Assembly: GCA_964432985.1 (NCBI GenBank)
Contig: CAYSPT010000011.1
Location: 21,257-85,256 of the forward strand
Reading direction: 5' to 3'
From: an uncultured bacterium
GTDB taxonomy: Bacteria; Muiribacteriota; CAYSPT01
DNA length: 64,000 nucleotides
This document shows, in pieces, positions 2,078 to 47,470 of the stretch. The translations under genes were made by a program, and so were the position numbers. Numbering within the stretch: the first letter of the stretch is position 1; each line of letters starts with the position of its first letter. The notes below the pieces were generated by a model. It searched no databases. It was not told the DNA's origin and saw only the letters and a list, made by a program, of their open reading frames with translations.

Positions 2078-2183
2078 TCCGGCTTGACCGGAGGATCCAC
2101 TCCAAAAATATAAACAGGGCCGGGAGCGTTTGCTGCTCTCCCGACCCTGGATGGTTTACTCAACTATCTTTCCGGCGACTCCG

Positions 2184-2651
2184 CTATCGATCAAGATTCC
2201 TGGTAGTTGTCCTTCTGTTGTTTTCATTCATAACCGCCGTAGCGTTTTGAAGGTTGCTGTTAACGGCCTGCTGAGCGGTGTCGGTGTTGTTGGCGAAACT
2301 ACCGTCACTCTGAAGCGTACCGGCAGTGGTCTGGCCCTGGCCCTGGAATGCACCCTGAACACCCTGCACGGTATTCTGCACGCCCTGCACGGCACCGGGG
2401 ACTGCCTGCACGACCTGGCCTGCCTGCCCCAGGGTACCGGCTACATCGTCGTTACCGAACATACCGGCGATGCCACCAGCGGCACTGAGAGCCGTACCGA
2501 TTCCGCCCATGGCGCTCGAACTGCCCAACACTCCACCAATACTCGAAACGAGGCTGCCGATAACTCCCACCACGGCGCAACCCTGAAGAACCATACTCCC
2601 CGTAACCAGAACCATCAGCAGCAGCAGCGAGCGGCAATTTCTTTTCAACAT
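2184..2651 (-). CDS. glycine-zipper lipoprotein (copy B)
   Basis: First 25 aa identical to copy A, including the LQGC lipobox. Same Gly-zipper and VQGVQ repeats. The upstream leader/promoter sequence 2649-2743 duplicates 1681-1775. Confidence 0.65.
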   Translation of the reverse strand: MLKRNCRSLLLLMVLVTGSMVLQGCAVVGVIGSLVSSIGGVLGSSSAMGGIGTALSAAGGIAGMFGNDDVAGTLGQAGQVVQAVPGAVQGVQNTVQGVQGAFQGQGQTTAGTLQSDGSFANNTDTAQQAVNSNLQNATAVMNENNRRTTTRNLDR

Positions 2652-2889
2652 CTTTCATCTTCCCTTTCCGAGTCATCCTTTATTTTCCTGCGGAACGTTC
2701 AACCGTTCCGTGTTTTCCGTTTTCACACAGTAAGTAACGTCCTGTCGGATAAAGTTGGAAAGTTTTTTTATGAAGCTTTTACTAACGTCTCCATTGACAA
2801 CTCCCCATGTACAAAACCAGGGGCTTTACGACGTTAACTGGTAAGGATATTCATTGAGCATTCTTACGAATCGGTGCCTGGCGATTGGT

Positions 2890-4677: not shown

Positions 4678-4763
4678 GGTACCGTTTATGGTAACACAGT
4701 GTCATAGCGCACGAAATTTACTCCTTTAACCAAACATAGTTGAAACAATCCTTCCCTTTATGC

Positions 4764-4967
4764 ATAGACCCGAGTAAGAAATAGACCCGAGTAAGAAATA
4801 GACCCGAATAAGAAATAGATCCGAGTATGAAGTACACCCAAGTAAGAAATACACCCAAATAAGAAATACACCCGAGTAAGAAATACACCCGAGTAAGAAA
4901 TGCACCCAGGTAAGAAATACACCCGGGTAAGAAATGCACCCGGGTAAGAAATACACCCGGGTGAAAA
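4764..4967. repeat. 17-bp tandem repeat array, 12 units (consensus atacacccgagtaagaa)
   Basis: Units read off at exact 17-nt phase from 4764 to 4967. The left units are 'atagaccc', the right units 'atacaccc/atgcaccc'. Intergenic, between divergent genes starting at 4677 (-) and 5128 (+). Confidence 0.95.
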
Positions 4968-4996
4968 GGATAACGCTGGGAAGAAGGGACAGCGCA

Positions 4997-5127: not shown

Positions 5128-6789
5128 ATGAAAAAACTGGCTGTATACCTATGTGCGGCAGCTCTGCTGGCGCCAGCACTGGTGATGTCCGCCACGACCG
5201 TTGAAGCCCGGGAAACGGACATCTCTGTCATTGAAAGACAAATAACGGAGGTCGATGCAACGGAGAACCGGGCGGCGGAAGCACAGCCAACGGAGGTCGA
5301 TGCAACGGAGAGCCGGACGGCGGAAGAAACCGTCCACTATTCGCTGGTGCGCGTCTACCTGGACAGCAAGAACGACAACCGCCTGCTGGCGGATATGGGC
5401 GTGCTGGACATCTGCGGCTACTCGGTTAAAGACGGCTACACGGAGCTGGTGGTCAATTCGTTTGGCCTGGAGCAGCTCAAAAACACGAACTTCCGGATAG
5501 AGATTATCGAGGACGGCCTGGACGCCCGGCTCGAGAAGTACCGCTTAAGCGGTGATCTCGGTGCTTATCACAGCGTGGCCGAGTCGAACCAGGCCATTCA
5601 GCGGATGCACGAGGATCATCCCGGGATAACCGCCCTGGAAGTGATCGGGTTTTCCTGGGAGGAACGGCCCATCTGGGCCATCAAGATATCGGACAACCCG
5701 CAGCTGGATGAAGACGAGCCGTCGGTCTTCTTCAACGGGGCCCACCACGCCAGGGAGTGGATCTCCTACGAGGTGCCCCTGGCCCTGGCGAAACACCTGC
5801 TTGAAAACTACGACAGCGACGAGACCATCACCGAACTGGTGAATGAGCGTGAGATATGGATCGTCCCTATTGTCAATCCCGACGGGGTGCGCCATGCCCA
5901 GACGACGTTCACCTTGTGGAGGAAGAACCGCCGGGAAGCGCCGCCGGAAGGCTATGAAAACGGGGTGCTCGACCCCAGGACGGTGGGGGTCGATCCCAAC
6001 CGCAACTACGGGTACATGTGGGGCGACACCAGCGACAACGTCCGTATCGAATCGGAAACCTATCACGGTCCCGGGCCGTTTTCCGAACCGGAAGTAATCG
6101 CCGTTCGGGACCTGGTCCTGCGGGAGCGGTTCGACACCGCCATCGCGTTTCACAGCTACTCCGAACTGATTCTCTATCCCTTCGGTTTTTCCAAAGAAGT
6201 CCATGCACCCGACGAACCGGCCATGCACGAGATAGCGGAAGAGATGGCCCGGTTCAACGGCTACACTCCCATGACGATTGCCGAGCTCTACCCCTGCCGG
6301 GGGACGGCCGACGACTGGTTCTACGGCGAAGCCGGGATCTTCCATTTCACCATGGAGCTGGGAAGGGATTTCATCCCCGCTGACGAGGACGTGGCGCCCA
6401 TTTGCGAATCGAACATCAAAGCGGCCCTGTACCTGTTGGGCAGGGCGGGAAACCTGGTTGACGAGCGCGTAGAGACCATCGTCCAGGTGCAGGATTACGT
6501 GGAGGCGCTGCTTAAAGAGGCAGCCGCCGACGGCCGCGGGATGTCCGACGGCGAGAAGATCGACTACGTGCGGATGCTCAGGCTGAAAAAGGTAATCGCA
6601 GAACAGCTGGCGAAAGAAGTGGCCGCAGGCTGCCCGGATAAAGCGGCCCAACTGACAGCGAAACTCGGCGCCATGCCACCCGGGATGAAAAACGTGTTTC
6701 GCCCGGTGGTCAACCACATCCTGGCCGCCGTGAAAAATAGAATGACACAGTGCTCACCGCAGCTGCGGTCACTGTTTAAAGAGTTTTAA
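5128..6789 (+). CDS. secreted M14 family zinc carboxypeptidase
   Basis: Signal peptide. Zn ligands HAREW (HxxE) and AFHSYS. NPDG, WRKNRR and NRNY motifs. Catalytic Glu in FTMELG. A 45-nt direct repeat near the N-terminus encodes TEVDATE.R.AE twice. Confidence 0.85.
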   Translation: MKKLAVYLCAAALLAPALVMSATTVEARETDISVIERQITEVDATENRAAEAQPTEVDATESRTAEETVHYSLVRVYLDSKNDNRLLADMGVLDICGYSVKDGYTELVVNSFGLEQLKNTNFRIEIIEDGLDARLEKYRLSGDLGAYHSVAESNQAIQRMHEDHPGITALEVIGFSWEERPIWAIKISDNPQLDEDEPSVFFNGAHHAREWISYEVPLALAKHLLENYDSDETITELVNEREIWIVPIVNPDGVRHAQTTFTLWRKNRREAPPEGYENGVLDPRTVGVDPNRNYGYMWGDTSDNVRIESETYHGPGPFSEPEVIAVRDLVLRERFDTAIAFHSYSELILYPFGFSKEVHAPDEPAMHEIAEEMARFNGYTPMTIAELYPCRGTADDWFYGEAGIFHFTMELGRDFIPADEDVAPICESNIKAALYLLGRAGNLVDERVETIVQVQDYVEALLKEAAADGRGMSDGEKIDYVRMLRLKKVIAEQLAKEVAAGCPDKAAQLTAKLGAMPPGMKNVFRPVVNHILAAVKNRMTQCSPQLRSLFKEF

Positions 6790-9815: not shown

Positions 9816-10529
9816 ATGAGAAACAAATGGTTATTATTCGCGCTGGTAACGCTGGTTATCGGTCTGGTGAGTTTGACGCCGGCTATGGCTGAAGACTTCA
9901 ATCACCTTGAAGAAGCGTTTGAGCTCCATCAACCGGGCAGCTTGTTATCCCTTGTTAAGGACGCGTTTGGCTTCGATTTTAGCGATTCGATCTCCAGGGC
10001 CGAGTATGAGAATATTCGCGTAAACCTCACCGCTCTCAAGGAGAAGGCCCGGTTCAAAGCGGTCAACGAACCGCACGGCACCCTGTATTCGGATCTTATC
10101 AAAGCTCTGGATGAGATTGAAAGCAACCTATCCGAACCTTCACCCGAGCCGCGGTTCACCCGGGACGCACTTGGCGTCATCACCGACAGCAAGACGAACC
10201 TGCAATGGCTCGAAGGTCCCAACCGGCCCTCGAGCTGGGAAGACGCACAGGAATGGATCCAGAGCCTGGGCGGTTCGTGGCGGACGCCGACACTGGCGGA
10301 ACTTGAAGGAATCTACCTGCCCGAGTCCCGGCGAAAAGGTATCTACGGGGACCCGCTGTGCCTGGATTACGCCTTTCAACGCGAAAGCGGCTACTCCCTG
10401 TGGTCCGTGGAGAGATACCCGGGAACGGCCTGGATGTTCGATTTCAGCCGCGGTTACGCCCACTGGATCGACACCTATTTCCCAGGTCATTTCGATCGGG
10501 CGGTGGCGGTAAGAGAGGCATACAACTGA
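9816..10529 (+). CDS. secreted DUF1566 (Lcl C-terminal-like) domain protein
   Basis: Signal peptide. TNLQWLEGPN...SWEDAQEWIQSLGGSWRTPTLAELEGIY resembles the DUF1566 pattern (...W.eA..yc..l....WRLPt..EL). Confidence 0.6.
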   Translation: MRNKWLLFALVTLVIGLVSLTPAMAEDFNHLEEAFELHQPGSLLSLVKDAFGFDFSDSISRAEYENIRVNLTALKEKARFKAVNEPHGTLYSDLIKALDEIESNLSEPSPEPRFTRDALGVITDSKTNLQWLEGPNRPSSWEDAQEWIQSLGGSWRTPTLAELEGIYLPESRRKGIYGDPLCLDYAFQRESGYSLWSVERYPGTAWMFDFSRGYAHWIDTYFPGHFDRAVAVREAYN

Positions 10530-16780: not shown

Positions 16781-19700
16781 CTACTTCGTCTCAAGCGCCT
16801 CCAGGCGTGACATGATCTCGGTGTTCTGCGCCTCCAGTGCTTCGATACGCTTATCCCTGGCGGCCAGCTCGGATTCTTTTTCCATCCTCAGAGACTCGAT
16901 CTCGTCGTCCTTCTGCGCTTTGAGCTCCTTGATGGCGTTTATCAGCACGAAGGTAAATGGGCTTGAATCGAAGCTGTAAAACTCGGTTTTTTCAGCATCT
17001 TCAGGTTCTAATTTGGCCATAAATGTAGAAATCGTATACGGGGCAATATTGATCACATCCTGCGCAACAACCCCTATTCCCTCAGCTCCCCGGGGCCGGG
17101 CCGCTTTTCCATTCAAGCGATAGCTGACCGGATTTATTTGCACGACAGTATCCAGGCCGTCAGTAAAGGGTTGTATGTCTTCCTTGAGTCGTTCATCCGA
17201 GACGATTGTCCACGTATTGCTCGTCGGTTTGGCGGCTGAATCGGTGGACAACTCGAGCTGGTAACTCGGGTTGGTGGTGCCGATACCGACATTGCCGCCG
17301 TTCAGACTCATGACGTGCTTGGTTCCAACATCTCCCGATGCATCCGTACCTTGATCCCACACAAAGAAATCGATTGAATTCTCATTGTCTGCACTACTAC
17401 GGTGGCGAGATTTAATAGCGTGTGTGTAACTGGAAGCTATTGATAATAGTATCTGGTTAATGTCATTATTGAAACTTACACCATCGCCAGACCTGAGTCG
17501 TAAAGCATCCTCAAGCCCATCCGGATCAATATCAACCCTGGCCCCCGGCGCGGTGGTGCCGATGCCGACCTTGCCGGCTGAGTTAATCTGCATTCTTTCC
17601 GTGAACGTGTCCGACGTCGAGTTCCAGTGACCGATCTGGATAGCCTCGCCATCCTCAGTGACAATATCCCCTTCTGTCGCATTTGCCCCGGTAATGTAAA
17701 TGCCAGGTTCTCCGCTGGGATCATAAACGCTCAGCAAACCTTCAGGAGTAGTCGTGCCGATACCGACCCTGCCGCTGCTTTCCATGAGAGTCAAGTACCC
17801 GTTCACCGGATCGATCCGCAGGCGCGTAGTCGTATCGTAGATGCCGAACTCGTCATCCGAGTCGCGGGCCCACAATTTCCACTCCTTGGTCCCACTCAAC
17901 AGAGAGAGTTGGGACTCGTTGGCGTCATCCGTCTCGATGCGGTGGATAACATCCTCCCCGGTTCCCCTAACATGCAGCTTGGTGGCAGGGGTGGCACCGA
18001 TACCGACGTATCCGTTGTTGTCTATCGTCATTCTTGTAAGGGGCGAGGTAGCGCCATTCGCGGTCGTCCCAAACTTCAGCTTGCCGCCGCCAGCTGTGCC
18101 AGTCCAATTTTCAGCTGCTTGAGCCCAGATATAGGCAGCGGCTCTATGACTTGATCCCGAATGGCCGTAATAATAGAGTGTTCCAAGTATGTCATTTGAC
18201 TGCACCGCCGCCGGGGATGCAGCGGTCCCCCGGGCAAACCTGAAATAAATTTCCGGATCGGCGTTGGCATGATCATAATAACTTTCAATGTATATCCCCT
18301 GGTCAAGGCCATCTTTAAACAAGTGAAGGGATTTCGCAGGCGCCGTGGTGCCGATACCGACCTTGCCGGCGTTGGTGATGCGCATACGCTCGGCGTTCTC
18401 GGTGGTGAAGGCGATGGTGCCGTCGGTGGTGGCGTCGGTGACCTCCACCTTGCTGTCGTCGGCGCTGATGCTGGAACCGGCGGGCAGGTTAGTCAGGGCG
18501 GAGCCGTTGCCCGCGAATGCGGTGGCCGTGACGGTGCCGTTGACATCGAGCTTGGACGATGGGCTGGTAGAGCCGATGCCGACGTTGCCGGAGCTGTCGA
18601 TATACAGATGCTCGGTACCGGCGGTACCGAGAGCCATGAGGTCCGTGGAATGCTTGTAGGTTATCCGTCCCCGGTAGGCTGCGTCCCCAGATGTCCCGTC
18701 GGCAAAAGCAATGGCACCTTCGTCAACCGTTCTCCCCGCGATGGTAATCCCGCTGGGTCCCTCTTCATGAATAACTAGATTATTAAAAGAAGCACTATAA
18801 TCCTTCGGGTTGGTGGTGCCGATGCCGACGTTGCCGTCGTTTAGGATGACCATCTTCTCGCTGCCAGCAGTGATGAACTGAATCTCGCCGCCGCTGGTGG
18901 AGTCGCTGTCAGCGGTGATGAGCATGTCAGCGGTGTTGGATATAGAGGATGCCGCTCCAACGCCGGCATCGAGTTGGACGATGGACATAGTGGGTTTTGT
19001 ATCTATTCCAGTATGAGTGTTAACTGCAGCACCTTCGACGTGATAAATCCTCATTTCAATAAAATCGCCTGCCTGTAAATCCAAGACTTCAACAAGATCA
19101 TTTCCAAGAGCTTGATTTGTATATGAACTTGTTTCGATTACTTTTTTAATTCTTACTCCATTGTAAAAAAAAGCTAATTGCATCTGCTCCCCACCATCAT
19201 TATTGATATGGTAATAATATCCAATAACCATATACTTTCCTGACTTCTGAATAAGAAAACGGTTGTTTGATTCATCAGCAATTCCCCCAATGTCAAATTC
19301 CACATTATCAAAAGCGATTGTCGTGTATACTCCGTTGGGTAGACTCTGTGCTGCATCTCGCACCATCTTCGCCATGTGAGCCGTGCTGCCGGCGGTGGCG
19401 GCCATCTCTTCCCAACCGGTGTTGGTGCCGTCACCGGAGGCCTTGCGGTAGACCTTACCGCTGGCGTGATCGGCGTAGATAGAGCCGAGCTGCGCGATGA
19501 CCACTCCTTCGGGCGCGCCGGAACCGGTGTAGATGCCCATGGAGTCGGTGTTGGTAGTGTCGGTCAGGCTGATGAATTCGGTGTCCTCGGCGCCCGCCAC
19601 TGTGAGCGTGCCGTCGGGTGTATCGGTGCCGATAGCGACCTTGCCGGCGGTGGTGTAGACGTCACCGGTACCCGTCCAGGAATCGTTGGTGGTGTCCGCA

Positions 19701-22700
19701 GCGCCGGCGGTAATGCCGTCGAGTTTGGTGCCGTCTGCGGCGATGTCCCGTCCATCCACGGTCCCGGAAACAGCGATATTGCCGGCCACGTCCAGGACTT
19801 CAACCGGCGTGGCCGATCCGATGCCGATCTTACCGTCGTTGAGGATGACCATACGTTCGCTACTGCCGGTGATGAACTGAATCTCGCCGCCGTCGGCGCT
19901 GTCGCTGTCGGCGGTGATGAGCAAGTCTTCTGCATTGGACATGGCGGTGGCATCCCCGCCTCCCGCGGCGTCGAGTTGGATGATGGACATTCTGGGTTTA
20001 AATTGTGCTGCAGTAGAGGTAGATAATCCTGATCCCGTACCAGCCTTAATATAAAATTCAATGTAATCTCCTTCAACAAGATCAAAAACTTCCGTTATAG
20101 GACCAGGTACTTCACAACCAGCTAATTTGTAATAATGACGGTAAAGCATCTGTGACGTACCGTTTTTATATATCAGGGAATCAATATGTCCAGACGGCAT
20201 ATTTTCACCCGTCCAGAAAGCTGAAACAATGTACTTTCCCGCTTTCTGGATAATGAAACGGTTATTTGTCACATCCGCCATTCCTCCTACATCAAACTCA
20301 ACATTATCAAAATCAACAGCTGTAATCTCAAGTTCAGTTAGACTCTGGGCAGCATCCCGCCTCATCTTCGCCATGTGAGCCGTACTGCCGGCGGTGGCGG
20401 CCATTTCCTCCCAGCCGGTGTTGGTGCCGTCGCCGGAGGCCTTGCGATAGACCTTGCCGCTGGCGTGATCGGCGTAGATAGAGCCGAGCTGCGCGATGAC
20501 CACTCCTTCGGGCGCGCCGGAACCGGTGTAGATGCCCATGGAGTCGGTGTTGGTTGAATCCTCCAGGCGGATGAGTTCGGTATCCTCAGCATCGGTGACA
20601 GTGAGCCTAGCGCCGGGACTTGAGGTACCTACGCCGACCTTGCCGGATGTGGTATAGACGTCATCGGTCCCCGTCCAAGAATCGTTGGTGGTGTCGGCGG
20701 CGCCAGCAGCAATGCCATCGAGTTTGGTGCCGTCTGCGGCGACGTCCCGTCCGTCGACCGTACCGGTAACCGCGATGTTGCCTACCACGTCAAGGATCTC
20801 TGCCGGGGTATCCGAACCTATCCCCACCTGGCCGTCATTGAGGATGACCATCTTCTCGCTGCCGGCGGTGACGAACTGGATCTCACCCCCGTCGGTGGAG
20901 TCGCTGTCGGCGGTGACGAGCATGTCGGCGGTATTGGATATGGAGGACGCCGCTCCTACGCCTGCATCGAGTTGGACGACAGACATGCGCGGCTTATAAT
21001 ATTCACCTGTATGTGTATTCATTGCAGTTCCCTTACTGTGTTTTACAGCAAACTGAAGATAATCATTTTCCACTAGATCTAAAACATCAGTAATAATTGC
21101 AGAAGAATACGCTGATCCAGCATGAATGTGCGTAAACGCAACTGAAGATCCATTTTTTTGAATTCGTGCTTCCATGGACGATCCAGCAGTGGCGGTACTG
21201 CTTGACCAAAACCCTGTTACCACATATTTTCCTGTTTTCTGGATGACAAACCGATCATTTGTTTCATCTGCCATCCCTCCAACATCAAATTCAACTGTAT
21301 CAAATTCAATATCTGTAATCGTAGTATTCGGAATACTTTGTGCTGTCTCCCTGGTCATCTTAGCCATGTGGGCGGTGCTGCCGGCGGTGGCGGCCATCTC
21401 TTCCCAGCCGGTATTGGTGCCGTCCCCGGAAGCCTTGCGGTAGACCTTGCCGCTGGCGTGATCGGCGTAGATGGATCCGAGTTGCGCGGTGACTGCCCCT
21501 TCGGGAGCGCCCGAGCCGGTGTAGATACCCATAGAGTCGGTGTTGGTGGTGTCGTTCAGGCTGATGAACTCGGTGTCTTCTTCGCCCGCTACCGTAAGCG
21601 TGCCGTCGGGAGTGTCGGTGCCGATGGAGACCTTGCCGGCGTCGAAATAGGCGTCTGTGTCGGTCTGCGTCCACAGTCCTCCGCCTCCGGCGTCAAGCTG
21701 GACGATGGACATTCTAGGTTGGTTTTCTTCGTTTGTATGAGTCGATATAGCACTGCCTTCGGTATGTCTCACAACCATTGTCACATTATCGCCAGCTTGC
21801 AAGTCAACAACATCAGTAATAAAAGGACTTGCGCCAGAATTTGCTGCTGGACTCATTCTCGATGAATGTAGTTTTGATACACCATTGATATAAATGTCGC
21901 AAACAACTTTTTCTCCGTCATCAATAACAGCAGCTGTTACCCATGATGCAGAAATCAAATACTTACCAGATTTCTGGATAGTGAAACGATTGTTTGTTTC
22001 ATAAGCCACTCCTCCCACATCAAACACTACCGTGTCAAAATCGATAGTTGTATAGGTTGCATGTGGGATACTCTGAGCCGCGGCTCTCGTCATCTTCGCC
22101 ATGTGAGCGGTGCTGCCGGCGGTGGCGGCCATCTCCTCCCAGCCGGTGTTGGTACCGTCGCCGGAAGCCTTGCGGTAGACCTTCCCGCTGGCGTGATCGG
22201 CGTAGATGGACCCGAGCTGTGCGGTGACTACCCCTTCGGGAGCACCGGAGCCGGTGTAGATGCCCATGGAGTCGGTGTTGGTTGAATCCTCCAGGCGGAT
22301 GAGTTCGGTATCCTCGGCATCGGTGACGGTGAGTTTTGCACCGGGACTGGATGTGCCGACACCAACTTTGCCGGACGTGGTGTAGACGTCATCAGTACCG
22401 GTCCAGGAGTCGTCGGTGGTGTCGGCGGCGTCAGCTGCAATACTGTCTAGCTTTGTGCCATCAGCGGCGATGTCTCGTCCGTCAACTGTGCCGGTGACCG
22501 CGATGTTGCCCGTCACATCCAGAATCTCTGCCGGAGTATCCGATCCGATCCCAACCTTGCCATCGTTGAGAATGACCATCTTCTCGCTGCCGGCGGTGAC
22601 GAACTGGATCTCGCCGCCGCTGGCGCTGTCGCTGTCGGCGGTGACGAGCATATCGGCGGTGTTGGATATGGATGATGCCGCGCCTACGCCGGCGTCGAGC

Positions 22701-25700
22701 TGGATGACGGACATAGTGGGGGCATATTGTTGGTTTGATAATATGTTCTCGGTATTAAACGCAGCTCCTTCATTATGCTTTACTTTCATCTTGATAGTAT
22801 CGCCAACTTGGAAATCCAGTATTCTAGTTATTTCCGTATCTACCGTGATATTTGCAGAACGTCCCAGTCCATCGGACGCAGCTATTGCAGCATCATTCAC
22901 AACAAGGTAAATCCTTACGTATTCAGAATCATCCATGACTGCAGGAGTTCTTATACTGGCCGTTATTAAGTATTTTCCAGCTTTCTGAATGGCGAATTGA
23001 TCATTTGTGTCATCACCAATTCCGCCAATATTAAAGTCAACAGTATCAAATGCGATTAATGTTGCTGAGTCGTGAGGGATACTCTGCGCCACGGTTCTGG
23101 TCATCTTTGCCATGTGGGCAGTGTTCCCAGCGGTGGCGGCCATCTCTTCCCAACCGGTGTTGGTGCCGTCACCGGAGGCCTTGCGGTAGACCTGGCCGCT
23201 GGCGTGATCAGCGTAGATGGATCCGAGCTGCGCGGTAACCGCCCCTTCGGGAGCGCCGGAACCGGTGTAGATGCCTATAGAATCTGTGTTGGTTGAATCC
23301 TCAAGACGTAGCAATTCGTTATCCTCTACATCGGTGACGGTGAGCTTCGCGCCGGGTACCGTGGTGCCGATGCCGACGTTACCTGAGGAGATGACCAACT
23401 GATCGGTGCCGGCTACCAGGCCGTTGGCTGGCAGGGTGAGGGTGCCGGTCATGGTGTCGCCGGTAGTGTTCACCCAGCTGTCCGCTGTGGCAGCCATGAA
23501 TTCGTTCACCTCTGCAGTGGCGGCGGAGCCCAGGCCCAGGGTTGCACGCTGGGCGGCGGCGTCCGCGTCGTCGAGAAGTGTCCGGCCGGCGGTAGATAGC
23601 GGCGTTACCGCATAGGTGTCGGTACCGGTGGTGTAGAGCATTTTGTCAGCCGCTGTGGTCAGACCGGATATGGACTCAAGCGCCGCGTGAAACGCCTGCA
23701 CATCGGCGCCGATGGCGTCCGTCATGATCGCACCGGCTTCCGCCACGGTAGTGGGATTAGTAACGTCGGCGCCCGCGGTGATATCGTCCAGCTTGGCGCC
23801 GTCCGCGGACAGGTCGCGCCCGTCGATGGTGCATCCGGCGGCGATCTCCACGGTGGCCCCCAGGTAGACGGTCCCGGCCACCTTCAGCTTGTAGGCACCC
23901 GGATCGGCGGTGCCGATTCCCACGCTGTCCCCGGCGGTGGTGAGAGTGACGATGCCGGTGCCTTCGGTCCAACCGCCGGCGCTGCCCGTGGGTTGAATGT
24001 CCAGGGCTTTCCACTCGCTTCCGGTATAGCCCTCGAAGGTGCCGCCGTTGAACCGGATGGTACCGGCGTTGGTACCGGTGGTGGTCCCCAGGATAAGACC
24101 ACCTTCCACATGCAGCTTGTCTGCCGGGGCCTCGGTGCCGATGCCGACATTGCCGTCCTGAACGCGTAATACTTCTGTCACACCATCATTGAGGGTTATT
24201 GATCCGGTGTCCATGCATGTCAACTTGAGCATATCGTTACCGCCACCATGGGCGATAAATGATTTAACTGCTATACCTTCATAAAAGCGAATATAGGTGT
24301 TGTAGCCGGTGTTGTTCACCAGGCTTAAACCGTCGTTGTTAGAGGTGGTAACCACCGTCAGCCTGGTGGTGGGACCTCCGGTACCAATGCTTACGGAACT
24401 TTCGGTGGTAAGAACGCCGTCACCGACACTCCACGGCGAATAGAGGTTTATCGTCCCTTCGGTAAGGTCGTCGGTGGTTTTTGCGGAAAACGCGGTATCG
24501 AATCCCCCCGAAGTGAAGTACTTGTTGGTGGAACCTTCCGACAGGTTGTCGGTGGTCTTTCCGGACAGGGCCGTTTCGAACCGTGCCTGGGTGTAGTAGA
24601 GATTATCACCTTCCGCAACCGCAGTAGTGGTCAACGTTTCCCAGGTCTTATCACCACGGAAGTACTCGGTAGTGGCCCCGGTGGTGAGAGCCGCTTCCTT
24701 GCCATCCACCGCTGTCTGCAGGCTGTCGATGTCGCCTTGAAGACCATCAAGTTCGCCCTGCAGGTCGGTCTGACTGGAAAGCGTGCCGGTGATGCCGCCC
24801 CAGGCAGTGCCCGCCTGGAAATCGGGGGTCCAGTTCTCCCACCGCGACTTGGAAGCGCTGTATTTCAGTATCTGCCCGTCACCGGGTGAGGTGAGAGCAA
24901 CATCCAATAGATCGCCGGTCTGCTTTCCGCTGAAGGCGGCGTCGAATGCCGTCTGGGTGAAATACTGGTTGGTTGAACCCTTGGTTATATCGTCGGCGGT
25001 CTTCCCGGCCAGGGACGCGTCAAACCGGTCCTGGGTGTAATAGAGGTTGTCACCTTCGGTTACCGCCGAGCTGCTCAACGTCTGCCAGGTCTTGTCGCCC
25101 CGGAAGTACTCTGTGGTGGCGCCGGCAGTGAGAGCCGCTTCCTTACCATCCACCGCCGTCTGCAGGCTGTCTATGTCACCTTGCAAACCATCAAGTTCGC
25201 CCTGCAGGTCTGTCTGGTCGGCCAGGGTGCCGGTGATTCCACCCCAGACCGCATCCGCTGTAAAATCAGGCGTCCAGTTCTCCCACTGTGATGTGGATGA
25301 ATTGTACTTCAACAGTTGTCCATCACCGGGAGTGCTGAGTGTTACATCGGAGAGATCACCGGCCTGCTTTTGACCTAAAGCGGCGTCGAATCCTGACTGG
25401 GTGAAGTACTTATTGTTGGATCCTTCCGTGATATCGTCGGTGGTCTTCCCGGTCAGGGACGCGTCGAACCGCGTCTGGGTGTAATAGAGGCTGTCGCCTT
25501 CCGCAACAGCGGTGGTGGTCAACGTCTGCCAGGTCTTGTCGCCCCGGAAGTACTCGGTGGTGGCCCCGGTGGTGAGAGCCGCTTCTTTGCCTTCCACCGC
25601 TGTCTGCAGACTGTCGATGTCGCTTTGCAGGCTGTCAAGTTCGCCCTGCAGGTCCGTCTGATCGGAAAGCGTACCGGTGATATCGCCCCAGGTGGTGTCA

Positions 25701-28246
25701 CTGGTGGAGCCCGATGAATCAAGCGCCTTCCATTCCTGTCCGTCGTAGCCTTTGAAACCGGTGCCGTCGAACTGCACCATGCCCGCTTCGGCGGTGGCGC
25801 CGAACGCCGGTCCCATGATGACGGTGCCCACCACGTGCAGGTCGGCTTTCGGATCACTGGTGGATATCCCGATTTTTCCCATGGTGATGACGTTCTGGTG
25901 CCCGAAATCGGGGCTGATCTTGGTGCCGGCGATGGCGGCGGTGGCGCTTACCCGGTTATCGGTTACGGCGCCGGACGCTATTTCTGCGTTGGTGATGGCC
26001 CCAACAGCAATGTCGTCCGCAGTTATCGTACCGTCGGCGATATCGTCTGAAGTAATGGCCCCATCGGCGATATGAGATGAAGTTACCGCTTCTTCGGTAA
26101 TACCGGAGGTAGTTACCGCACCGGCTGCGATATTTTCGGCGGTTATTGCCCCAGAGGCGATATCGTCGGTGGTGATGGTCCCGTCTTCGATGCTGCCTCC
26201 GGGACCGCCGGAAACGGTGGAGGTCAGGCTGTCGATTCCCAGGTTGGTGCGGGCCTGCTCGGCGGTGGTGGCGCCGGTTCCGCCGCTTGCAACCGGGACC
26301 ACACCGGTGACACCGGCGGCATTACCGGGGATGTCGCCCTCCACGCTGGCACCGGTGATCGGGCCGCTGATTTGTGAAGATGGGATATCTCCGACAACCT
26401 GCGAGGAGGGAATATCCCCAACAACCTGTGACGAGGGAATTGTTCCGGTTATCTTCGAGCCGGAAACGCTCTCGATGGAGTCATCTGAAATCAAACCCGT
26501 AATTTTTGTGCTGCTTACCGACTCGATGTAGTCGTCGGCGATGGGATCACCCTGCCAGGCGCCATCGATGACGTTACCGTTCTCATCTACCGCGAAGACA
26601 CCGCTGGTGCTGCTCGTTCCCGCCTGCTGCTGCCCGCTGCTGCCCACGGTCAAAGCGGCGTGGGGATCGGTGGTACCGATGCCGACATTGCCGGTATCAC
26701 CGTCCACCACGAAAGCGGAGCCCGATTCCGATTCCACGTGCAGCAGTCCCTGCGGGTCTTTCGTACCGATACCGATACAGCCCACCGCCGTGAGCAGGTT
26801 CTCGCGCTCTTCCGCAGTGGTGCCGCCGGGGTCCCCGGACACGTACAGGTATTCGCTTCGGTTGTACTCGATGTTCCCGTGCCGGTCCTTCACCCGCACC
26901 CCGAACACGTACCGTCCGCCGGAAAGCGACCCTTCGAAGATGCAGCCGCACTCGCCTCGGATACCGTCGTAGATCTCCGTATCACTATATTGGACAGGGT
27001 TGTTGTTGTCCCAGTTCTCCGGGTCCCATTGTTCCACCGTATTGTGGTAGACGATGAAAGTCAGGGGAGAAGAGGCGTCCAGGCAGCGCCCGAACTCAAC
27101 CGCCACGGCAAACTCTGCGCTGCTGGGATTTGCCGATTCATCGCCCCCGTTGGCCGATGACATGTCGATCTCGGTCATGTACACCAGACCGGGTGTGCTT
27201 TCCCACACCGGCGCTTTTTCGTCGATGAGCGAGGCGTTAACCGTGGATGTAGCTCCTTCGGCGACCGTTACGCCCTCTTCCACGGCTCCGTCTACGATCA
27301 GGTCGTGCCTGAACGTCACGGTGTAGCTTCCCGGTTTCACACCCACGATCTCGTAGTAACCGTCTTCGCCGGTGACGGCGAACTGCTCTTCACCGCTAGA
27401 GCCGGTCAGCGTGACCATTACTTCCCCCACGGGCTGCTGGTCCTGAGCGAGGGCGCTGCCGCTTACCGTGCCGCCCAGATACGGGATAAGGTTCACCGGG
27501 TCCAGCACCGCCGCTGAGGCGGCCGGGACCTGTACCAGCGCCGGGTAGTCCTGGCTCTCGTATCCCGGGTGCATGAAGCTCACCTGGTAGCTGCCTACCG
27601 GGACCTGGCTGATGGTGAACGATCCGTCGTCGCCGGTCATACTGATGTAATCGGTGCCCTTGATGACCACGAAGGTGCCGGCGTGAGCGCCGGATTCGGC
27701 GTCCTCAAGCAGGCAGTAGCCGGTTAAAGCGCCGGTGGGCGTGAGGGCCAGGTCCACCACGGTGGCTTCCAGCGGAGACACTGTCCCCCGCCCTTTTGCC
27801 TTCAGGCCGCCGCGGGTTGCTTCGATGTAGTAGGTGCCCGTGTCCAGCCCGGCGAGGACATAGACTCCCTGCCCATCGGTGACGGTGGCATAGGATCCGG
27901 GCGCGGCCGCGCCGGCCGCCTTAACCGATTGCCTGAAAGCGGTATTCCCGGACGGACGGGCCGCCAGCACCTTCGCCTGCCGGGGGCTGACGCCGCCTTC
28001 GTCCACCCGGCTGGCCAGCACCAGTATGCCCGGGCCCGACGAGCCGTCGGGCAGGATTACCTTCCCCGTCAAGGTGTATCCCAGAGCCGAAACAGTCGAT
28101 GACCCGCCGCTCGAGGAACCACCCGTAGCAGCGCTGTCGCCGCCACCGTCGCCGCAGCCGGTCATGACAATACAAATAAAGCCTGCCAGCAGGCAGGCCG
28201 TTCCAGTTGAAAATACACCCTTTTTAAAGCTATTCCCACATCCCAT
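16781..28246 (-). CDS. giant (3821 aa) lipobox-bearing fibre/adhesin-like protein, tail-fibre-like, with C-terminal S74 intramolecular chaperone domain
   Basis: Single uninterrupted ORF with GGAGGG 7 nt upstream of the ATG. The N-terminus ...CIVMTGC(31)GDGGG is a lipobox. Carboxypeptidase-regulatory-like beta domains follow (GTYYIEATRGG, GSYQVSFMHPGY, GSYTVTFRH). Also present: tail-fibre-type short repeats, 3x 148-aa repeats, 5 stalk/head modules and a C-terminal SDERLKEDI...GVVAQDV... domain plus coiled coil. Confidence 0.9.
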   Translation of the reverse strand: MGCGNSFKKGVFSTGTACLLAGFICIVMTGCGDGGGDSAATGGSSSGGSSTVSALGYTLTGKVILPDGSSGPGILVLASRVDEGGVSPRQAKVLAARPSGNTAFRQSVKAAGAAAPGSYATVTDGQGVYVLAGLDTGTYYIEATRGGLKAKGRGTVSPLEATVVDLALTPTGALTGYCLLEDAESGAHAGTFVVIKGTDYISMTGDDGSFTISQVPVGSYQVSFMHPGYESQDYPALVQVPAASAAVLDPVNLIPYLGGTVSGSALAQDQQPVGEVMVTLTGSSGEEQFAVTGEDGYYEIVGVKPGSYTVTFRHDLIVDGAVEEGVTVAEGATSTVNASLIDEKAPVWESTPGLVYMTEIDMSSANGGDESANPSSAEFAVAVEFGRCLDASSPLTFIVYHNTVEQWDPENWDNNNPVQYSDTEIYDGIRGECGCIFEGSLSGGRYVFGVRVKDRHGNIEYNRSEYLYVSGDPGGTTAEERENLLTAVGCIGIGTKDPQGLLHVESESGSAFVVDGDTGNVGIGTTDPHAALTVGSSGQQQAGTSSTSGVFAVDENGNVIDGAWQGDPIADDYIESVSSTKITGLISDDSIESVSGSKITGTIPSSQVVGDIPSSQVVGDIPSSQISGPITGASVEGDIPGNAAGVTGVVPVASGGTGATTAEQARTNLGIDSLTSTVSGGPGGSIEDGTITTDDIASGAITAENIAAGAVTTSGITEEAVTSSHIADGAITSDDIADGTITADDIAVGAITNAEIASGAVTDNRVSATAAIAGTKISPDFGHQNVITMGKIGISTSDPKADLHVVGTVIMGPAFGATAEAGMVQFDGTGFKGYDGQEWKALDSSGSTSDTTWGDITGTLSDQTDLQGELDSLQSDIDSLQTAVEGKEAALTTGATTEYFRGDKTWQTLTTTAVAEGDSLYYTQTRFDASLTGKTTDDITEGSNNKYFTQSGFDAALGQKQAGDLSDVTLSTPGDGQLLKYNSSTSQWENWTPDFTADAVWGGITGTLADQTDLQGELDGLQGDIDSLQTAVDGKEAALTAGATTEYFRGDKTWQTLSSSAVTEGDNLYYTQDRFDASLAGKTADDITKGSTNQYFTQTAFDAAFSGKQTGDLLDVALTSPGDGQILKYSASKSRWENWTPDFQAGTAWGGITGTLSSQTDLQGELDGLQGDIDSLQTAVDGKEAALTTGATTEYFRGDKTWETLTTTAVAEGDNLYYTQARFETALSGKTTDNLSEGSTNKYFTSGGFDTAFSAKTTDDLTEGTINLYSPWSVGDGVLTTESSVSIGTGGPTTRLTVVTTSNNDGLSLVNNTGYNTYIRFYEGIAVKSFIAHGGGNDMLKLTCMDTGSITLNDGVTEVLRVQDGNVGIGTEAPADKLHVEGGLILGTTTGTNAGTIRFNGGTFEGYTGSEWKALDIQPTGSAGGWTEGTGIVTLTTAGDSVGIGTADPGAYKLKVAGTVYLGATVEIAAGCTIDGRDLSADGAKLDDITAGADVTNPTTVAEAGAIMTDAIGADVQAFHAALESISGLTTAADKMLYTTGTDTYAVTPLSTAGRTLLDDADAAAQRATLGLGSAATAEVNEFMAATADSWVNTTGDTMTGTLTLPANGLVAGTDQLVISSGNVGIGTTVPGAKLTVTDVEDNELLRLEDSTNTDSIGIYTGSGAPEGAVTAQLGSIYADHASGQVYRKASGDGTNTGWEEMAATAGNTAHMAKMTRTVAQSIPHDSATLIAFDTVDFNIGGIGDDTNDQFAIQKAGKYLITASIRTPAVMDDSEYVRIYLVVNDAAIAASDGLGRSANITVDTEITRILDFQVGDTIKMKVKHNEGAAFNTENILSNQQYAPTMSVIQLDAGVGAASSISNTADMLVTADSDSASGGEIQFVTAGSEKMVILNDGKVGIGSDTPAEILDVTGNIAVTGTVDGRDIAADGTKLDSIAADAADTTDDSWTGTDDVYTTSGKVGVGTSSPGAKLTVTDAEDTELIRLEDSTNTDSMGIYTGSGAPEGVVTAQLGSIYADHASGKVYRKASGDGTNTGWEEMAATAGSTAHMAKMTRAAAQSIPHATYTTIDFDTVVFDVGGVAYETNNRFTIQKSGKYLISASWVTAAVIDDGEKVVCDIYINGVSKLHSSRMSPAANSGASPFITDVVDLQAGDNVTMVVRHTEGSAISTHTNEENQPRMSIVQLDAGGGGLWTQTDTDAYFDAGKVSIGTDTPDGTLTVAGEEDTEFISLNDTTNTDSMGIYTGSGAPEGAVTAQLGSIYADHASGKVYRKASGDGTNTGWEEMAATAGSTAHMAKMTRETAQSIPNTTITDIEFDTVEFDVGGMADETNDRFVIQKTGKYVVTGFWSSSTATAGSSMEARIQKNGSSVAFTHIHAGSAYSSAIITDVLDLVENDYLQFAVKHSKGTAMNTHTGEYYKPRMSVVQLDAGVGAASSISNTADMLVTADSDSTDGGEIQFVTAGSEKMVILNDGQVGIGSDTPAEILDVVGNIAVTGTVDGRDVAADGTKLDGIAAGAADTTNDSWTGTDDVYTTSGKVGVGTSSPGARLTVTDAEDTELIRLEDSTNTDSMGIYTGSGAPEGVVIAQLGSIYADHASGKVYRKASGDGTNTGWEEMAATAGSTAHMAKMRRDAAQSLTELEITAVDFDNVEFDVGGMADVTNNRFIIQKAGKYIVSAFWTGENMPSGHIDSLIYKNGTSQMLYRHYYKLAGCEVPGPITEVFDLVEGDYIEFYIKAGTGSGLSTSTAAQFKPRMSIIQLDAAGGGDATAMSNAEDLLITADSDSADGGEIQFITGSSERMVILNDGKIGIGSATPVEVLDVAGNIAVSGTVDGRDIAADGTKLDGITAGAADTTNDSWTGTGDVYTTAGKVAIGTDTPDGTLTVAGAEDTEFISLTDTTNTDSMGIYTGSGAPEGVVIAQLGSIYADHASGKVYRKASGDGTNTGWEEMAATAGSTAHMAKMVRDAAQSLPNGVYTTIAFDNVEFDIGGIADESNNRFLIQKSGKYMVIGYYYHINNDGGEQMQLAFFYNGVRIKKVIETSSYTNQALGNDLVEVLDLQAGDFIEMRIYHVEGAAVNTHTGIDTKPTMSIVQLDAGVGAASSISNTADMLITADSDSTSGGEIQFITAGSEKMVILNDGNVGIGTTNPKDYSASFNNLVIHEEGPSGITIAGRTVDEGAIAFADGTSGDAAYRGRITYKHSTDLMALGTAGTEHLYIDSSGNVGIGSTSPSSKLDVNGTVTATAFAGNGSALTNLPAGSSISADDSKVEVTDATTDGTIAFTTENAERMRITNAGKVGIGTTAPAKSLHLFKDGLDQGIYIESYYDHANADPEIYFRFARGTAASPAAVQSNDILGTLYYYGHSGSSHRAAAYIWAQAAENWTGTAGGGKLKFGTTANGATSPLTRMTIDNNGYVGIGATPATKLHVRGTGEDVIHRIETDDANESQLSLLSGTKEWKLWARDSDDEFGIYDTTTRLRIDPVNGYLTLMESSGRVGIGTTTPEGLLSVYDPSGEPGIYITGANATEGDIVTEDGEAIQIGHWNSTSDTFTERMQINSAGKVGIGTTAPGARVDIDPDGLEDALRLRSGDGVSFNNDINQILLSIASSYTHAIKSRHRSSADNENSIDFFVWDQGTDASGDVGTKHVMSLNGGNVGIGTTNPSYQLELSTDSAAKPTSNTWTIVSDERLKEDIQPFTDGLDTVVQINPVSYRLNGKAARPRGAEGIGVVAQDVINIAPYTISTFMAKLEPEDAEKTEFYSFDSSPFTFVLINAIKELKAQKDDEIESLRMEKESELAARDKRIEALEAQNTEIMSRLEALETK
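16784..17235 (-). other. Peptidase S74-like intramolecular chaperone (tail-spike/fibre autoprocessing) domain + terminal coiled coil
   Basis: TSNTWTIVSDERLKEDIQPFTDGLDTVVQINPVSYRLNG...GIGVVAQDVINIAPYTIS...FVLINAIKELKAQ matches the S-D-x-R-x-K ... AQE/D pattern of endosialidase-type chaperone domains. Confidence 0.8.
18989..23119 (-). repeat. five tandem stalk+head modules inside the giant gene (period 733-1012 nt)
   Basis: The AHMAKM codon blocks start at 23102, 22091, 21356, 20363 and 19364. The variable heads are 22715-23101, 21713-22090, 20987-21355, 19991-20362 and 18989-19363. Head lengths checked by counting residues: 129, 126, 123, 124 and 125 aa. Confidence 0.9.
24431..25705 (-). repeat. 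three tandem 148-aa (444-nt) repeats inside the giant gene
   Basis: The EYFRGDKTW codon blocks start at 25529, 25085 and 24641, an exact 444-nt period. Each unit has WGGITGTL.DQTDLQGELD.LQ.DIDSLQTAV.GKEAALT.GATTEYFRGDKTW. Confidence 0.9.
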
Positions 28247-40903: not shown

Positions 40904-41182
40904 TCAGTCCCGGAGCAGCCGTCCCCCGCCATTGTAGATACGGGAGCGGAAGTGCGTTGTCATCTCCGGCAGCTCTACCACTTCGAGAGACCTCTGGCGG
41001 TACTTGCCGTAGAACCACATGATATAGAGAACCACCAGGGGGATACAGAGGATCATAGCGGCCGGAACCAGACCACCGATGGCCGCACCCATCAAAGCTC
41101 CGATCATGGAGTGATCCACAATATCTCCCATAAAAAATCCTGCCGCACCTACGAGAACGGCACCGAGTACGATAGGGTGCAT
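40904..41182 (-). CDS. small Gly-rich membrane protein
   Basis: I prefer the start at the ATG preceded by GGAGG (MHPIVLGAVLVGAAG...). The ORF track extends the ORF to 41233. Two or three hydrophobic segments. Confidence 0.5.
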   Translation of the reverse strand: MHPIVLGAVLVGAAGFFMGDIVDHSMIGALMGAAIGGLVPAAMILCIPLVVLYIMWFYGKYRQRSLEVVELPEMTTHFRSRIYNGGGRLLRD

Positions 41183-41502
41183 CGAGTATCGACCTCCGTT
41201 CCAGAAATTTGATTCATTTAGTATTTTTTTCAAGCTTCAATCCATAGGTGTCGGCAAACGCCAAATTGTTGGAAACTTTTTTCAATGAATGAGGATGTTC
41301 TCAAGAAAAGAGTTCTTTACGAGTCACATTGCATTAACAAAAGCCTTTTCTTATTCCGGCCTCATTGCGACTGAAAAGACCTGTTCTTCATGTTTGATTC
41401 CTGTTGTTCTTGCCGCTGGCCGTGGACAGAGAGTATCATGAGAATAGCGTCAGAGACGCCGGCCGGACATTGTACTAGTTTGATAATTGAAAGGGTTTTG
41501 AG

Positions 41503-42765: not shown

Positions 42766-43051
42766 TTCCCGCCTCGGGGAAAGAACGTCCTCCAGTATCA
42801 GTCTTCCGTTGCTTCAACCATCACCGACTGAAGTCGGTTGATTGATCACGGTTGAGGTTACGCAGTCTTCCTTCTCGCGGATAATAAACATTTGTAATGT
42901 ATTTCATTGTTGGGTGTGCCATGGTCACTCTGGGAGTCCTGAACGCAAAAGGTATTATCGTTGTTAACTGCATTAGCTTGTTTTGATATACTGCCTGATG
43001 TTTAACTCTAATTATTGAATCAAGCATAAATTTTGGGCAGGTAGATATTCG

Positions 43052-44920: not shown

Positions 44921-44935
44921 GGACGGAGCAGGAGC

Positions 44936-45632: not shown

Positions 45633-45636
45633 GCGC

Positions 45637-47409: not shown

Positions 47410-47470
47410 TTCAACTATATGAATCTGACAAAACAAAAGTCCTCTACGCAGGGTGGATGAGGAAATGAGG

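Follow-up and report, generated by a model that had tools for sequence, protein, structure and literature searches.

What does a bacterial gene encode that strings five divergent C1q/TNF-like heads and their stalks along a single chain, and how did such an array arise? This question is raised by a stretch of 64,000 nucleotides (nt) of contig CAYSPT010000011.1 (assembly GCA_964432985.1, positions 21,257 to 85,256) from an uncultured bacterium of the Muiribacteriota, which is referred to as the window. The gene, here called the fibre gene, was found in the list of open reading frames (ORFs) and in the translation as one ORF of 3821 amino acids (aa) on the minus strand (16781-28246). According to the reading that we favour, and that we consider somewhat better than even, it encodes a giant trimeric cell-surface fibre composed of phage-tail-fibre parts, i.e., an adhesin similar to the mosaic adhesive trimer (MAT) fibres of Bdellovibrio bacteriovorus, in which internally duplicated heads act as glycan-binding knobs. 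The product is best regarded as chromosomally encoded and probably lipid-anchored at the cell surface.

A repeat search revealed five copies of a ~300-nt unit inside the fibre gene, with spacings of 999, 993, 735 and 1011 nt. With the module borders set by the anchors IYTGSGAPEG, AQS[IL] and MS[VI][IV]QLDA, the array is divided into five modules, each composed of a conserved neck and a divergent head of ~140 aa. The head cores are located at aa 1720-1844, 2057-2178, 2302-2420, 2633-2752 and 2966-3086, and a 61-aa segment, IYTGSGAPEG...HMAKM.R.., precedes every one of them (5/5). Five such modules had been described in an earlier note on this DNA, which was made from the sequence alone, and the computed coordinates are the same.

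The fold of the heads was assigned by profiles and by structural modelling. Searched as a whole against Pfam, the protein matched BclA_C (PF18573) with 78.6 bits (cut-off 38) and C1q (PF00386) with 56.6 bits (cut-off 23.7). Taken singly, the heads scored 14-31.5 bits for BclA_C and 20.7-22.4 bits for C1q, just below the Pfam cut-offs, and head 4, the most divergent of the five, gave no C1q match in Pfam. Neck and head of module 2 were modelled with AlphaFold2 (AF2) from an alignment of the five modules and nine relatives, resulting in a predicted local distance difference test score (pLDDT) of 85.5, with values mostly above 90 in the head. The top matches of this model in a Foldseek search against the PDB were C1QL2, the C1q domain of Caprin-2, C1ql1, C1QL3, C1QTNF5 and C1q, with TNF ligands next. 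For the matches 4qpy, 4oum, 9lkk, 5ybz and 1pk6 the E values were 1e-9 to 4e-8, and the superpositions reached template-modelling (TM) scores of 0.80-0.85 (target-normalised) at a root-mean-square deviation between 2.4 and 3.2 Å; the superposed C1q-family structures share 14-20% sequence identity with the modelled head. Among viral models, many phage tail-fibre proteins and proteins annotated as C1q domain-containing were matched. The signature of C1q domains, in PROSITE-type notation, is F-x(5)-G-x-Y-x-F. The corresponding motif F-x5-G-K-Y-x-[IV] is found exactly once per head (5/5) and nowhere else in the protein, ending in Ile or Val where the C1q signature has Phe. The earlier note had read the C1q/TNF jelly-roll from the spacing of conserved residues, and on this point Pfam (above threshold for the whole protein), the AF2 model, Foldseek and the single occurrence of the signature in each head all agree with it; profile search and structure search both returned C1q/TNF. 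The heads are C1q/TNF-like ten-strand jelly-rolls.

The heads differ from each other in a patterned way. Strands A (HMAKM), H (RMSIVQ) and C (GKYLI..) are conserved among the five, with pairwise identities of 0.86, 0.70 and 0.54, and strands D and E are near-unrelated, with 0.09 and 0.08. In C1q/TNF domains, the inner sheet that makes the trimer is formed by strands A, H, C and F. Such a distribution of conserved strands would suit a knob that trimerises and is variable on its outside. In the relatives P0005, P0004, P0021 and P0308 a second, distinct head type directly follows the first after a 17-aa Gly-rich linker (SGGGNPE...); it shows ~25-30% identity with the first type and 50-57% identity between genomes.

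The neck is more than a generic stalk, as it resembles a blade of a beta-propeller. A search with the neck profile hit single blades of the designed Pizza propellers (E 2.5e-9), and in the module 2 model the neck forms four strands with a pLDDT of 83-89. Because the neck precedes heads in proteins of many genomes, neck and head constitute a conserved pair; the neck is also found without heads in P0006, P0016 and P0070. Reading of the translation revealed no collagen-like Gly-X-Y repeats before any head. The stalks had been described as almost invariant even in their DNA, which holds for the pair given as an example (187 of 197 nt identical) but not over all ten pairs, in which the 183-nt neck shows 83.6-94.0% nt identity and 9-18 synonymous codon differences at 89-98% protein identity. 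After each head there is a Gly/Ala/Ser-rich stretch, QLDAGVGAASSISNTADM. In link 1 this linker is followed by a MAT-type beta-helix shaft with two GIGT motifs; link 2 is short and has no counterpart of the initial ~90 aa present in the other links.

Shaft and C-terminus show of what kind the fibre is. The Peptidase_S74 domain (PF13884, 45.1 bits, cut-off 22) covers aa 3683-3736, and SDERLK at aa 3683 is the sole SD...K motif in the protein. SDxxxK is the catalytic motif of S74 domains, intramolecular chaperones that fold trimeric fibres and then cleave themselves away (PMC10769870). The region aa 3101-3821 was matched by phmmer to the structures of Bdellovibrio MAT fibres 8OML (2.6e-12), 8ON4 (6.5e-9), 8OND (2.9e-8) and 8OL4 (1.4e-7). 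The protein contains 16 capping-type motifs of the form G[NKQR][VI][GSA][IV]G[TS], and the repeated GNVGIGTxxPxxKL aligns with the capping-loop motif of MAT fibres, the Bd2133 shaft included. In PHROG, the distal shaft matched the tail-fibre family phrog_9942 (6.2e-52) and phrog_18345 (2.8e-30), and the protein further matched the virion structural protein family phrog_13989 (5.2e-49); the head is C-terminal in two phage PHROG families and the neck in one. No NCBIfam family matches the protein. The name fibre gene given by the earlier note is justified by Peptidase_S74, the PHROG tail-fibre families and the MAT fibre shafts alike.

The N-terminal end suggests a location at the cell envelope. 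It carries a signal with a lipobox-like ...ICIVMTG-C, in which the Cys and its context are kept in the orthologue of a sister species (...ICIVMAGC), and by this motif the protein is a putative lipoprotein. It is followed by CarboxypepD_reg domains (PF13620, 65.3 bits, cut-off 32.3, in three stretches; PF13715, 37 bits). In the proximal shaft, three 148-aa repeats (24465-25652) carry the coiled-coil-like sequence DLQGELD.LQ.DIDSLQTAV, and this region is kept in the sister species.

We propose that the S74 domain would nucleate a three-chain fibre and then cut itself off at S3683, and that the N-terminus would remain at the cell envelope. Each head would form a homotrimeric knob via the conserved strands A, C, F and H, and the hypervariable strands D and E together with the loops would face outward and bind ligands. 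These ligands would most likely be surface glycans, by analogy with the TNF-like tip of Bd2439, for which binding of N-acetylglucosamine (GlcNAc)-type glycans in an inter-protomer pocket was reported (PMC10769870). The fibre would thereby present five different lectin-like binding surfaces in series, and the analogy suggests multi-specific binding by the five heads.

The closest characterised systems are the MAT fibres of B. bacteriovorus, comprising the S74 type Bd3182, Bd2439 and Bd2734 with TNF/C1q-like tips, and Bd2133. MAT fibres are located at the surface and have S74 or TNF-like tips; glycans containing GlcNAc are ligands of Bd2439 (Caulton et al., 2024; PMC10769870). In common with the fibre gene these are chromosomal, possess a signal peptide, a phage-tail-fibre-like trimeric beta-helix shaft with the capping motif V-G-x-G...P...L (the sequence match to 8OML, 8OND, 8OL4 and 8ON4), an S74 chaperone with SDxxxK and TNF/C1q-like adhesive modules, and they exchange their distal parts in evolution. 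In contrast, MAT fibres are ~1000 aa long with one tip, either S74 or C-terminal TNF-like, whereas here 3821 aa carry five internal heads (aa 1710-3094) on blade-like necks, followed by 590 aa of shaft and S74. Phage C1q proteins of pelagiphages (PMC3909814) and fibres of extracellular contractile injection systems (eCIS; PMC12923769) share the head fold, the hypervariable head and the S74-assisted trimeric fibre. By fold, Synechococcus phage C1q-domain proteins and the L-shaped fibre of Xanthomonas phage RiverRider are related (BFVD), and members of the same sequence family are present in PHROG families 13989 and 12754. The phage and eCIS proteins differ by having a single terminal head in a virion or an eCIS operon, compared to five internal ones in a cellular context. 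The gC1q/TNF proteins proper (C1q, C1QL1-3, Caprin-2, CTRPs, cerebellins) and Bacillus BclA share the ten-strand jelly-roll, the signature and the conserved inner-sheet strands; unlike these, the fibre heads sit on a beta-blade-like neck and have no collagen-like stalk, and the identity is 14-20%.

Are five heads on one protein exceptional? Searched against 1.84 billion cluster representatives, the head profile matched 54,528 proteins with an E value up to 0.001, of which 499 reached E <= 1e-30. Among the best 150 of the 54,528 matches, 147 proteins have 2-10 heads, 45 have five to ten and three is the commonest count (52 proteins), as counted with the head hidden Markov model (HMM); this list is skewed to multi-head proteins because scores sum over domains. 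Many of the multi-head matches have linkers of just 5-20 aa between heads, and others are spaced as in this gene. Within the subfamily with blade-like necks, one or two neck-head pairs per protein are found elsewhere, and five is the highest number seen. Judged by sequence profile, five heads on one protein appear unexceptional among database matches. The earlier statement that C1q heads are normally single and C-terminal is valid for characterised proteins but not for the database, as the 147 proteins with 2-10 heads among the best 150 show. Tandem arrangements of two or three C1q domains have been described in animals, in CTRP4 and in a bivalve C1q domain-containing (C1qDC) protein. Serial internal heads on bacterial fibres were not found described in the searchable literature. 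The gene is a variant of the MAT-like or phage-fibre-like adhesins with TNF/C1q modules, within a large uncharacterised population of multi-head fibres.

A comparable architecture exists in Hyphomicrobium sp. DY-1, in which WP_414463365.1 (annotated as C1q-like domain-containing protein) contains six heads that are 21-39% identical, spacers that are 66-84% identical and a C-terminal S74. It resembles the fibre protein in its signal peptide, spaced divergent heads, conserved spacers and C-terminal S74, and in having a GC content at third codon positions (GC3) that is somewhat lower in the heads than in the spacers (0.69 vs 0.81). It differs in that the spacer is another one without blade-like neck, the length is half, the GC3 contrast is mild and the gene stands in a row of S74 genes. 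In this row (L026, CP134870.1 540020-551788) four adjacent genes each end in Peptidase_S74 and encode products of 780 aa, 743 aa, 1922 aa (with the six C1q heads) and 942 aa (with Gp34_trimer), a row that has the look of a MAT-like fibre repertoire, in an alphaproteobacterium that is cultured and non-predatory.

How the array evolves can be seen in part from a sister species with a TypA that is 95% identical and with the same Cupin-HutH-TypA synteny at the fibre locus (L020). Its orthologue shows 71-92% aa identity per 100-residue window to aa 1600 and 69-92% nt identity per 60-codon window to aa ~1650. Collinearity stops at GNVGIGTT (aa ~1630, window ~23355), and further on the two sequences show no relationship. 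Neither heads nor necks were detected in the ~550 aa left on the contig, and Pfam gave no match in the distal part; tandem YTLPATDGSADQVLVTDGSGAVSW repeats are visible in place of the heads. The sister contigs L019, L020, L021 and L022 all end inside the fibre orthologue, after 1230, 2175, 1653 and 1230 aa, and the distal part of the sister orthologue may be more repetitive or polymorphic. It is the whole distal part with the head array, not single heads, that differs between the sister species. Tip exchange of this kind was described for MAT fibres (PMC10769870).

Within the array, the five heads share 34-47% identity among themselves and 37-47% with the closest heads of other genomes, and no head above ~47% identity was found elsewhere among 5.8 billion proteins or by profile search of 1.84 billion representatives. 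Common to the five are a one-residue deletion after GGIAD, Val in FDTVxF and Gln in IQK, three characters that are absent from nearly all outgroup heads, and in a neighbour-joining tree the five heads form a clade. With moderate confidence they are regarded as in-situ paralogues, presumably formed by internal duplication. At conserved residues the observed fraction of identical codons, compared with the fraction expected from codon usage, was 0.49/0.46 in heads, 0.71/0.57 in necks and 0.62/0.47 in links. As observed and expected values are about equal in the heads, their synonymous sites are saturated, and those of necks and links are not. In a permutation test, unusually long identical neck tracts were significant in two of the ten pairs, namely 64 nt between neck 1 and neck 5 (P = 0.0002) and 98 nt between neck 4 and neck 5 (P = 0.002). 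The necks thus appear to be kept alike by strong protein-level constraint (purifying selection) with occasional gene conversion. Variants in the number or order of heads were absent from every assembly seen and from the 90% identity cluster, and a scan of metagenomes with the neck peptide gave, among the matches listed, two weak TARA fragments that are uninformative on head variants. For the swapping of single-head cassettes, suggested as a possibility by the earlier note, no evidence was found: the search of related sequences for order or copy-number variants turned up none, the heads look like in-situ paralogues and the nearest foreign heads reach ~47% identity at most.

The most surprising feature of the gene is the inverted codon preference of the heads. 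The head cores have a GC content of 0.36-0.405 and a GC3 of 0.24-0.33, compared to 0.645-0.67 and 0.77-0.84 in the 61-aa necks and 0.60-0.63 and 0.72-0.79 in the links; the rest of the fibre gene has a GC3 of 0.69. The contrast of AT-rich heads and GC-rich stalks, originally counted by hand, is hence confirmed by computation for each segment. Since the segments differ little in GC at the first and second codon positions, the contrast results from synonymous codon choice beyond amino-acid content: heads prefer GGA, GCT/GCA, ACA/ACT, GAT, AAA and TTT, the rest of the gene GGC, GCC, ACC, GAC, AAG and TTC. The neighbouring genes have a GC3 mostly of 0.55-0.78 (range 0.41-0.78), and only the low-GC gene 41503-42765 among them contains a 120-codon stretch with a GC3 below 0.33. 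In relatives with neck and head, head GC3 lies below neck GC3 in 10 of 10 loci, by 0.05-0.24, and three further homologues have heads 0.03-0.13 below the rest of the gene. For the independent multi-head genes, head and spacer GC3 are 0.69 and 0.81 (L026), 0.64 and 0.76 (L028), and 0.77 and 0.75 (L027). The contrast of about 0.5 found here is an outlier among relatives and specific to this gene. Further AT3-rich patches (rich in A/T at third codon positions, GC3 0.2-0.4) lie outside the heads at 17360-17480 and 24200-24320 (aa ~3581-3620 and ~1321-1340), and aa 1741-1800 of the sister orthologue form another one (GC3 0.2-0.35), a unique insert between GC3-rich shaft repeats. As these patches are in other non-repeat segments of the fibre, the composition effect reaches beyond the C1q heads.

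Two explanations of this bias have to be compared, a local regime and import. Because saturated paralogues all keep the same bias, it gives the impression of a stationary state and not of an import still to be ameliorated. Our preferred guess is that unique, fast-evolving segments outside homologous recombination drift to an AT-biased mutational equilibrium, as head segments excluded from recombination would escape GC-biased conversion; we guess that such a local regime accounts for the AT3 richness better than recent import. Translational pausing as an intrinsic property of the heads was considered and is unlikely, as relatives show little or no GC3 contrast. A bolder reading is that serial C1q/TNF trimers on one shaft represent an undescribed class of multi-specific, "poly-head" adhesins in which the head-coding DNA of this lineage would be kept at an AT-rich equilibrium of its own by a region-specific process that marks the heads as diversification cassettes, and for which exclusion from recombination and GC-biased conversion or targeted mutagenesis are candidates. 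We regard this reading as doubtful.

It is also unlikely that the heads are cassettes acquired laterally from AT-rich donors, e.g., low-GC Patescibacteria or their phages, and placed between resident GC-rich stalks through homologous recombination of the conserved flanking sequences, which corresponds to the cassette model of the earlier note. The codon inversion itself is compatible with this, as is the sharp switch of GC3, which at either border of a head changes between ~0.8 and ~0.25 over some 20 codons. Relatives with neck and head are mainly found in Patescibacteria genomes, some of low GC, and in one of them (L006) the GC content of the locus is 0.36 and the GC3 of the head 0.24; moreover, exact repeats of 64-98 nt are long enough for RecA-type recombination, and the distal fibre part was replaced in one sister lineage or the other. 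However, the five heads cluster and have derived characters in common that are missing from the outgroup heads, no foreign head exceeds ~47% identity in either collection searched, and the saturation of synonymous sites with the same AT3 bias in all five speaks for a stationary state and not for recent import. Furthermore, for recombination of a donor stalk rich in AT3 with a resident one rich in GC3 the nucleotide identity would be missing, and no assembly contains variants of head order or number.

Some observations speak against the adhesin that we propose and its origin by internal duplication. Bootstrap values give the five-head clade weak support (31/200), and the GC3-rich genes L004 and L027 show no head contrast, weakening the idea of recombination exclusion. 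MAT fibres are defined by a conserved beta-rich N-domain of ~130 aa; the N-terminus of the fibre protein carries a lipobox-like motif and CarboxypepD_reg domains. Both termini of C1q/TNF domains are located at the base. It is for this reason that the path of a trimeric shaft past an internal head is hard to picture, and no solved structure shows a trimeric shaft that continues past an internal C1q/TNF head. In Bd2439, a base linker coordinates the C-terminus (PMC10769870). In the fibre proposed here, the Gly/Ala/Ser-rich stretch after the head would have to bring the chain beyond the knob or along its side; otherwise the fibre would kink at each head.

Less probable still is that the heads are structural knobs, which stiffen, space or joint the fibre, or antigenic decoys, with binding confined to the distal beta-helix before S74. 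Internal TNF-like knob domains do occur in the central spike of phage phi812 (9eul), and MAT and phage fibres of the S74 type bind via a beta-helix cleft just before the chaperone (PMC10769870). Against this stands the hypervariability of strands D and E and the loops on a conserved core, a pattern of binding or antigenic surfaces, and the same domain is the glycan-binding terminal tip in MAT fibres and a terminal tip in phage proteins.

That the product is the tail fibre of a phage, prophage, tailocin or contractile injection system, we consider improbable. The PHROG matches to tail-fibre families (6e-52 and 3e-30) and to a virion structural family (5e-49) point in this direction, as do the S74 chaperone typical of phage fibres and the C1q heads known from pelagiphage receptor-binding proteins (PMC3909814) and eCIS fibres (PMC12923769). 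The flanking genes, however, are cellular and encode subtilases, an M14 carboxypeptidase, HutH, TypA/BipA, an amylase, a histidine kinase and radical-SAM enzymes; Pfam detected no phage structural family (capsid, terminase, tail tube, sheath, baseplate) in 20 flanking proteins, the 64-kb window contains no tRNA gene, the N-terminal signal with the lipobox-like Cys is kept in the orthologue, and synteny with housekeeping genes is retained in the sister species. Cellular neighbours and the lipoprotein-type signal therefore indicate a bacterial surface fibre. The receptor-binding organelle postulated by the earlier note, if of the viral kind, is replaced by a chromosomal gene with cellular neighbours and a lipoprotein-type N-terminus.

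It is highly improbable that the heads of one chain pack as pseudo-trimers, comparable to single-chain TNF, instead of homotrimers of three chains. Many database proteins have linkers of 5-20 aa between heads, with three heads as commonest count (52 proteins in the best 150), which would suit this arrangement; five, however, is no multiple of three, the heads are 105-195 aa apart here with shaft-type sequence between them, relatives that share this neck have one head or two, and the S74 domain implies a three-chain fibre. An assembly artefact from collapsed or chimeric paralogues, suspected as the gene is repetitive and the examined sister-species contigs all break inside the orthologous gene, was rejected as close to impossible, since the identical 3821-aa protein was read on 15 contigs, two loci fetched from different archives (a JGI contig and an ENA contig) are nt-identical to the window across 17.5 kb, the reading frame is uninterrupted through 11.5 kb and the longest exact internal repeat is 98 nt, with a unique head flanking each repeat. 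The 90% identity cluster consists of the same gene, a one-residue variant and contig-truncated fragments, and nothing else.

The coordinates of all parts of the fibre gene are compiled in the table.

Table. Parts of the fibre gene in window coordinates, with the evidence on which each assignment is based.
Feature	Window position	Strand	Evidence
Whole fibre gene, 3821 aa + stop	16781..28246	(-)	ORF list, translation, 15 contigs
Predicted signal peptide with lipobox-like ...ICIVMTG/C, aa 1-31	28154..28246	(-)	Translation
Three CarboxypepD_reg / Ig-like beta-sandwich domains, aa ~55-340	27227..28084	(-)	Pfam PF13620, PF13715
Proximal fibre part to aa ~1630, collinear with sister orthologue	23357..28153	(-)	aa and nt alignment
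Three 444-nt (148-aa) shaft repeats WGGITGTL.DQTDLQGELD...	24465..25652	(-)	Repeat search, 78-80% identity
GNVGIGTT capping-loop motif, start of head array	23355..23401	(-)	nt alignment of junction; 47-nt repeat family
Neck 1, aa 1639-1709, beta-propeller-blade-like	23120..23332	(-)	Profile match, AF2; GC3 0.77
Head 1, aa 1710-1852, C1q/TNF-like	22691..23119	(-)	BclA_C 8e-7, C1q 1.5e-4, head HMM; GC 0.405, GC3 0.33
Link 1, aa 1853-1975	22322..22690	(-)	phmmer to Bd2133 (8OND) E 8.2e-6; GC3 0.72
Neck 2, aa 1976-2046	22109..22321	(-)	As neck 1; belongs to modelled module
Head 2, aa 2047-2186	21689..22108	(-)	AF2 and Foldseek; GC3 0.28
Link 2, aa 2187-2220	21587..21688	(-)	Module alignment; spacing 735 nt vs ~1000 nt
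Neck 3, aa 2221-2291	21374..21586	(-)	Module alignment
Head 3, aa 2292-2428	20963..21373	(-)	BclA_C 7.4e-7, C1q 5.2e-4; GC3 0.24
Link 3, aa 2429-2551	20594..20962	(-)	85% nt identity with link 1
Neck 4, aa 2552-2622	20381..20593	(-)	98-nt exact tract common with neck 5
Head 4, aa 2623-2760	19967..20380	(-)	BclA_C E 0.047 only in Pfam; head HMM and profile; GC3 0.275
Link 4, aa 2761-2884	19595..19966	(-)	76-78% nt identity with links 1 and 3
Neck 5, aa 2885-2955	19382..19594	(-)	64-nt exact tract common with neck 1
Head 5, aa 2956-3094	18965..19381	(-)	BclA_C 1.6e-5, C1q 2e-4; GC 0.36, GC3 0.27
Distal shaft, aa 3095-3682, MAT / phage-tail-fibre-like beta-helix, GIGT motifs	17201..18964	(-)	phmmer, PHROG
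S74 chaperone / autoprotease from S3683 and terminal coiled coil	16784..17200	(-)	PF13884, SDERLK

The window was also inspected for known systems of variation. A repeat search of the 64 kb revealed neither a head copy outside the fibre gene nor inverted repeats, and no reverse-transcriptase family was present among the window proteins scanned with Pfam. The gene as target of a diversity-generating retroelement was ruled against, as the 64-kb window contains no template repeat and, among the proteins scanned, no reverse transcriptase; silent head cassettes or invertible segments were rejected, as repeats resembling a head are confined to the gene and inverted ones are absent from the window.

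Map-downstream of the fibre gene, two large secreted subtilases and a protein with an Lcl_C domain are encoded at 6923-9718, 9816-10529 and 11514-14081; one of these subtilases shares CarboxypepD_reg/PEGA domains with the fibre N-terminus, and the three may be envelope partners of the fibre. Several repeats are located elsewhere in the window. About 15 tandem copies of a 17-nt unit (ATAGACCCGAGTAAGAA / ATACACCCGAGTAAGAA) form an intergenic array at 4730-4992, upstream of the M14 carboxypeptidase gene 5128..6789. A tandem duplication at 1034-2769, with a period of ~790-970 nt and copies that are 84-97% identical, spans the ORF 2130..2837 and the preceding sequence. A 209-nt direct repeat with 92% identity (45873-46081 and 53413-53621) encloses a radical-SAM/SPASM enzyme, a lysine-2,3-aminomutase-like enzyme and another radical-SAM protein. 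The region 41000-48000, a low-GC stretch (0.41-0.49) just upstream, contains a peptidase C39 protein and a GAF histidine kinase. The radical-SAM cluster together with peptidase C39 could be an island of the type for ribosomally synthesised and post-translationally modified peptides (RiPPs).

MAT-type fibres are a recently recognised form of bacterial cell recognition that uses phage parts, and the family is larger than the six solved examples. In this gene and in hundreds of multi-head relatives the TNF/C1q tip is multiplied along one fibre, with a conserved stalk alternating with a divergent head, which raises the structural question of how a shaft passes beyond a domain that has both termini on one side. 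The codon inversion, confined to five saturated paralogous segments, offers a test case for whether low-GC surface genes originate from import or from a local regime. If it is true that each head binds a different ligand, a single protein would constitute a five-way recognition device.

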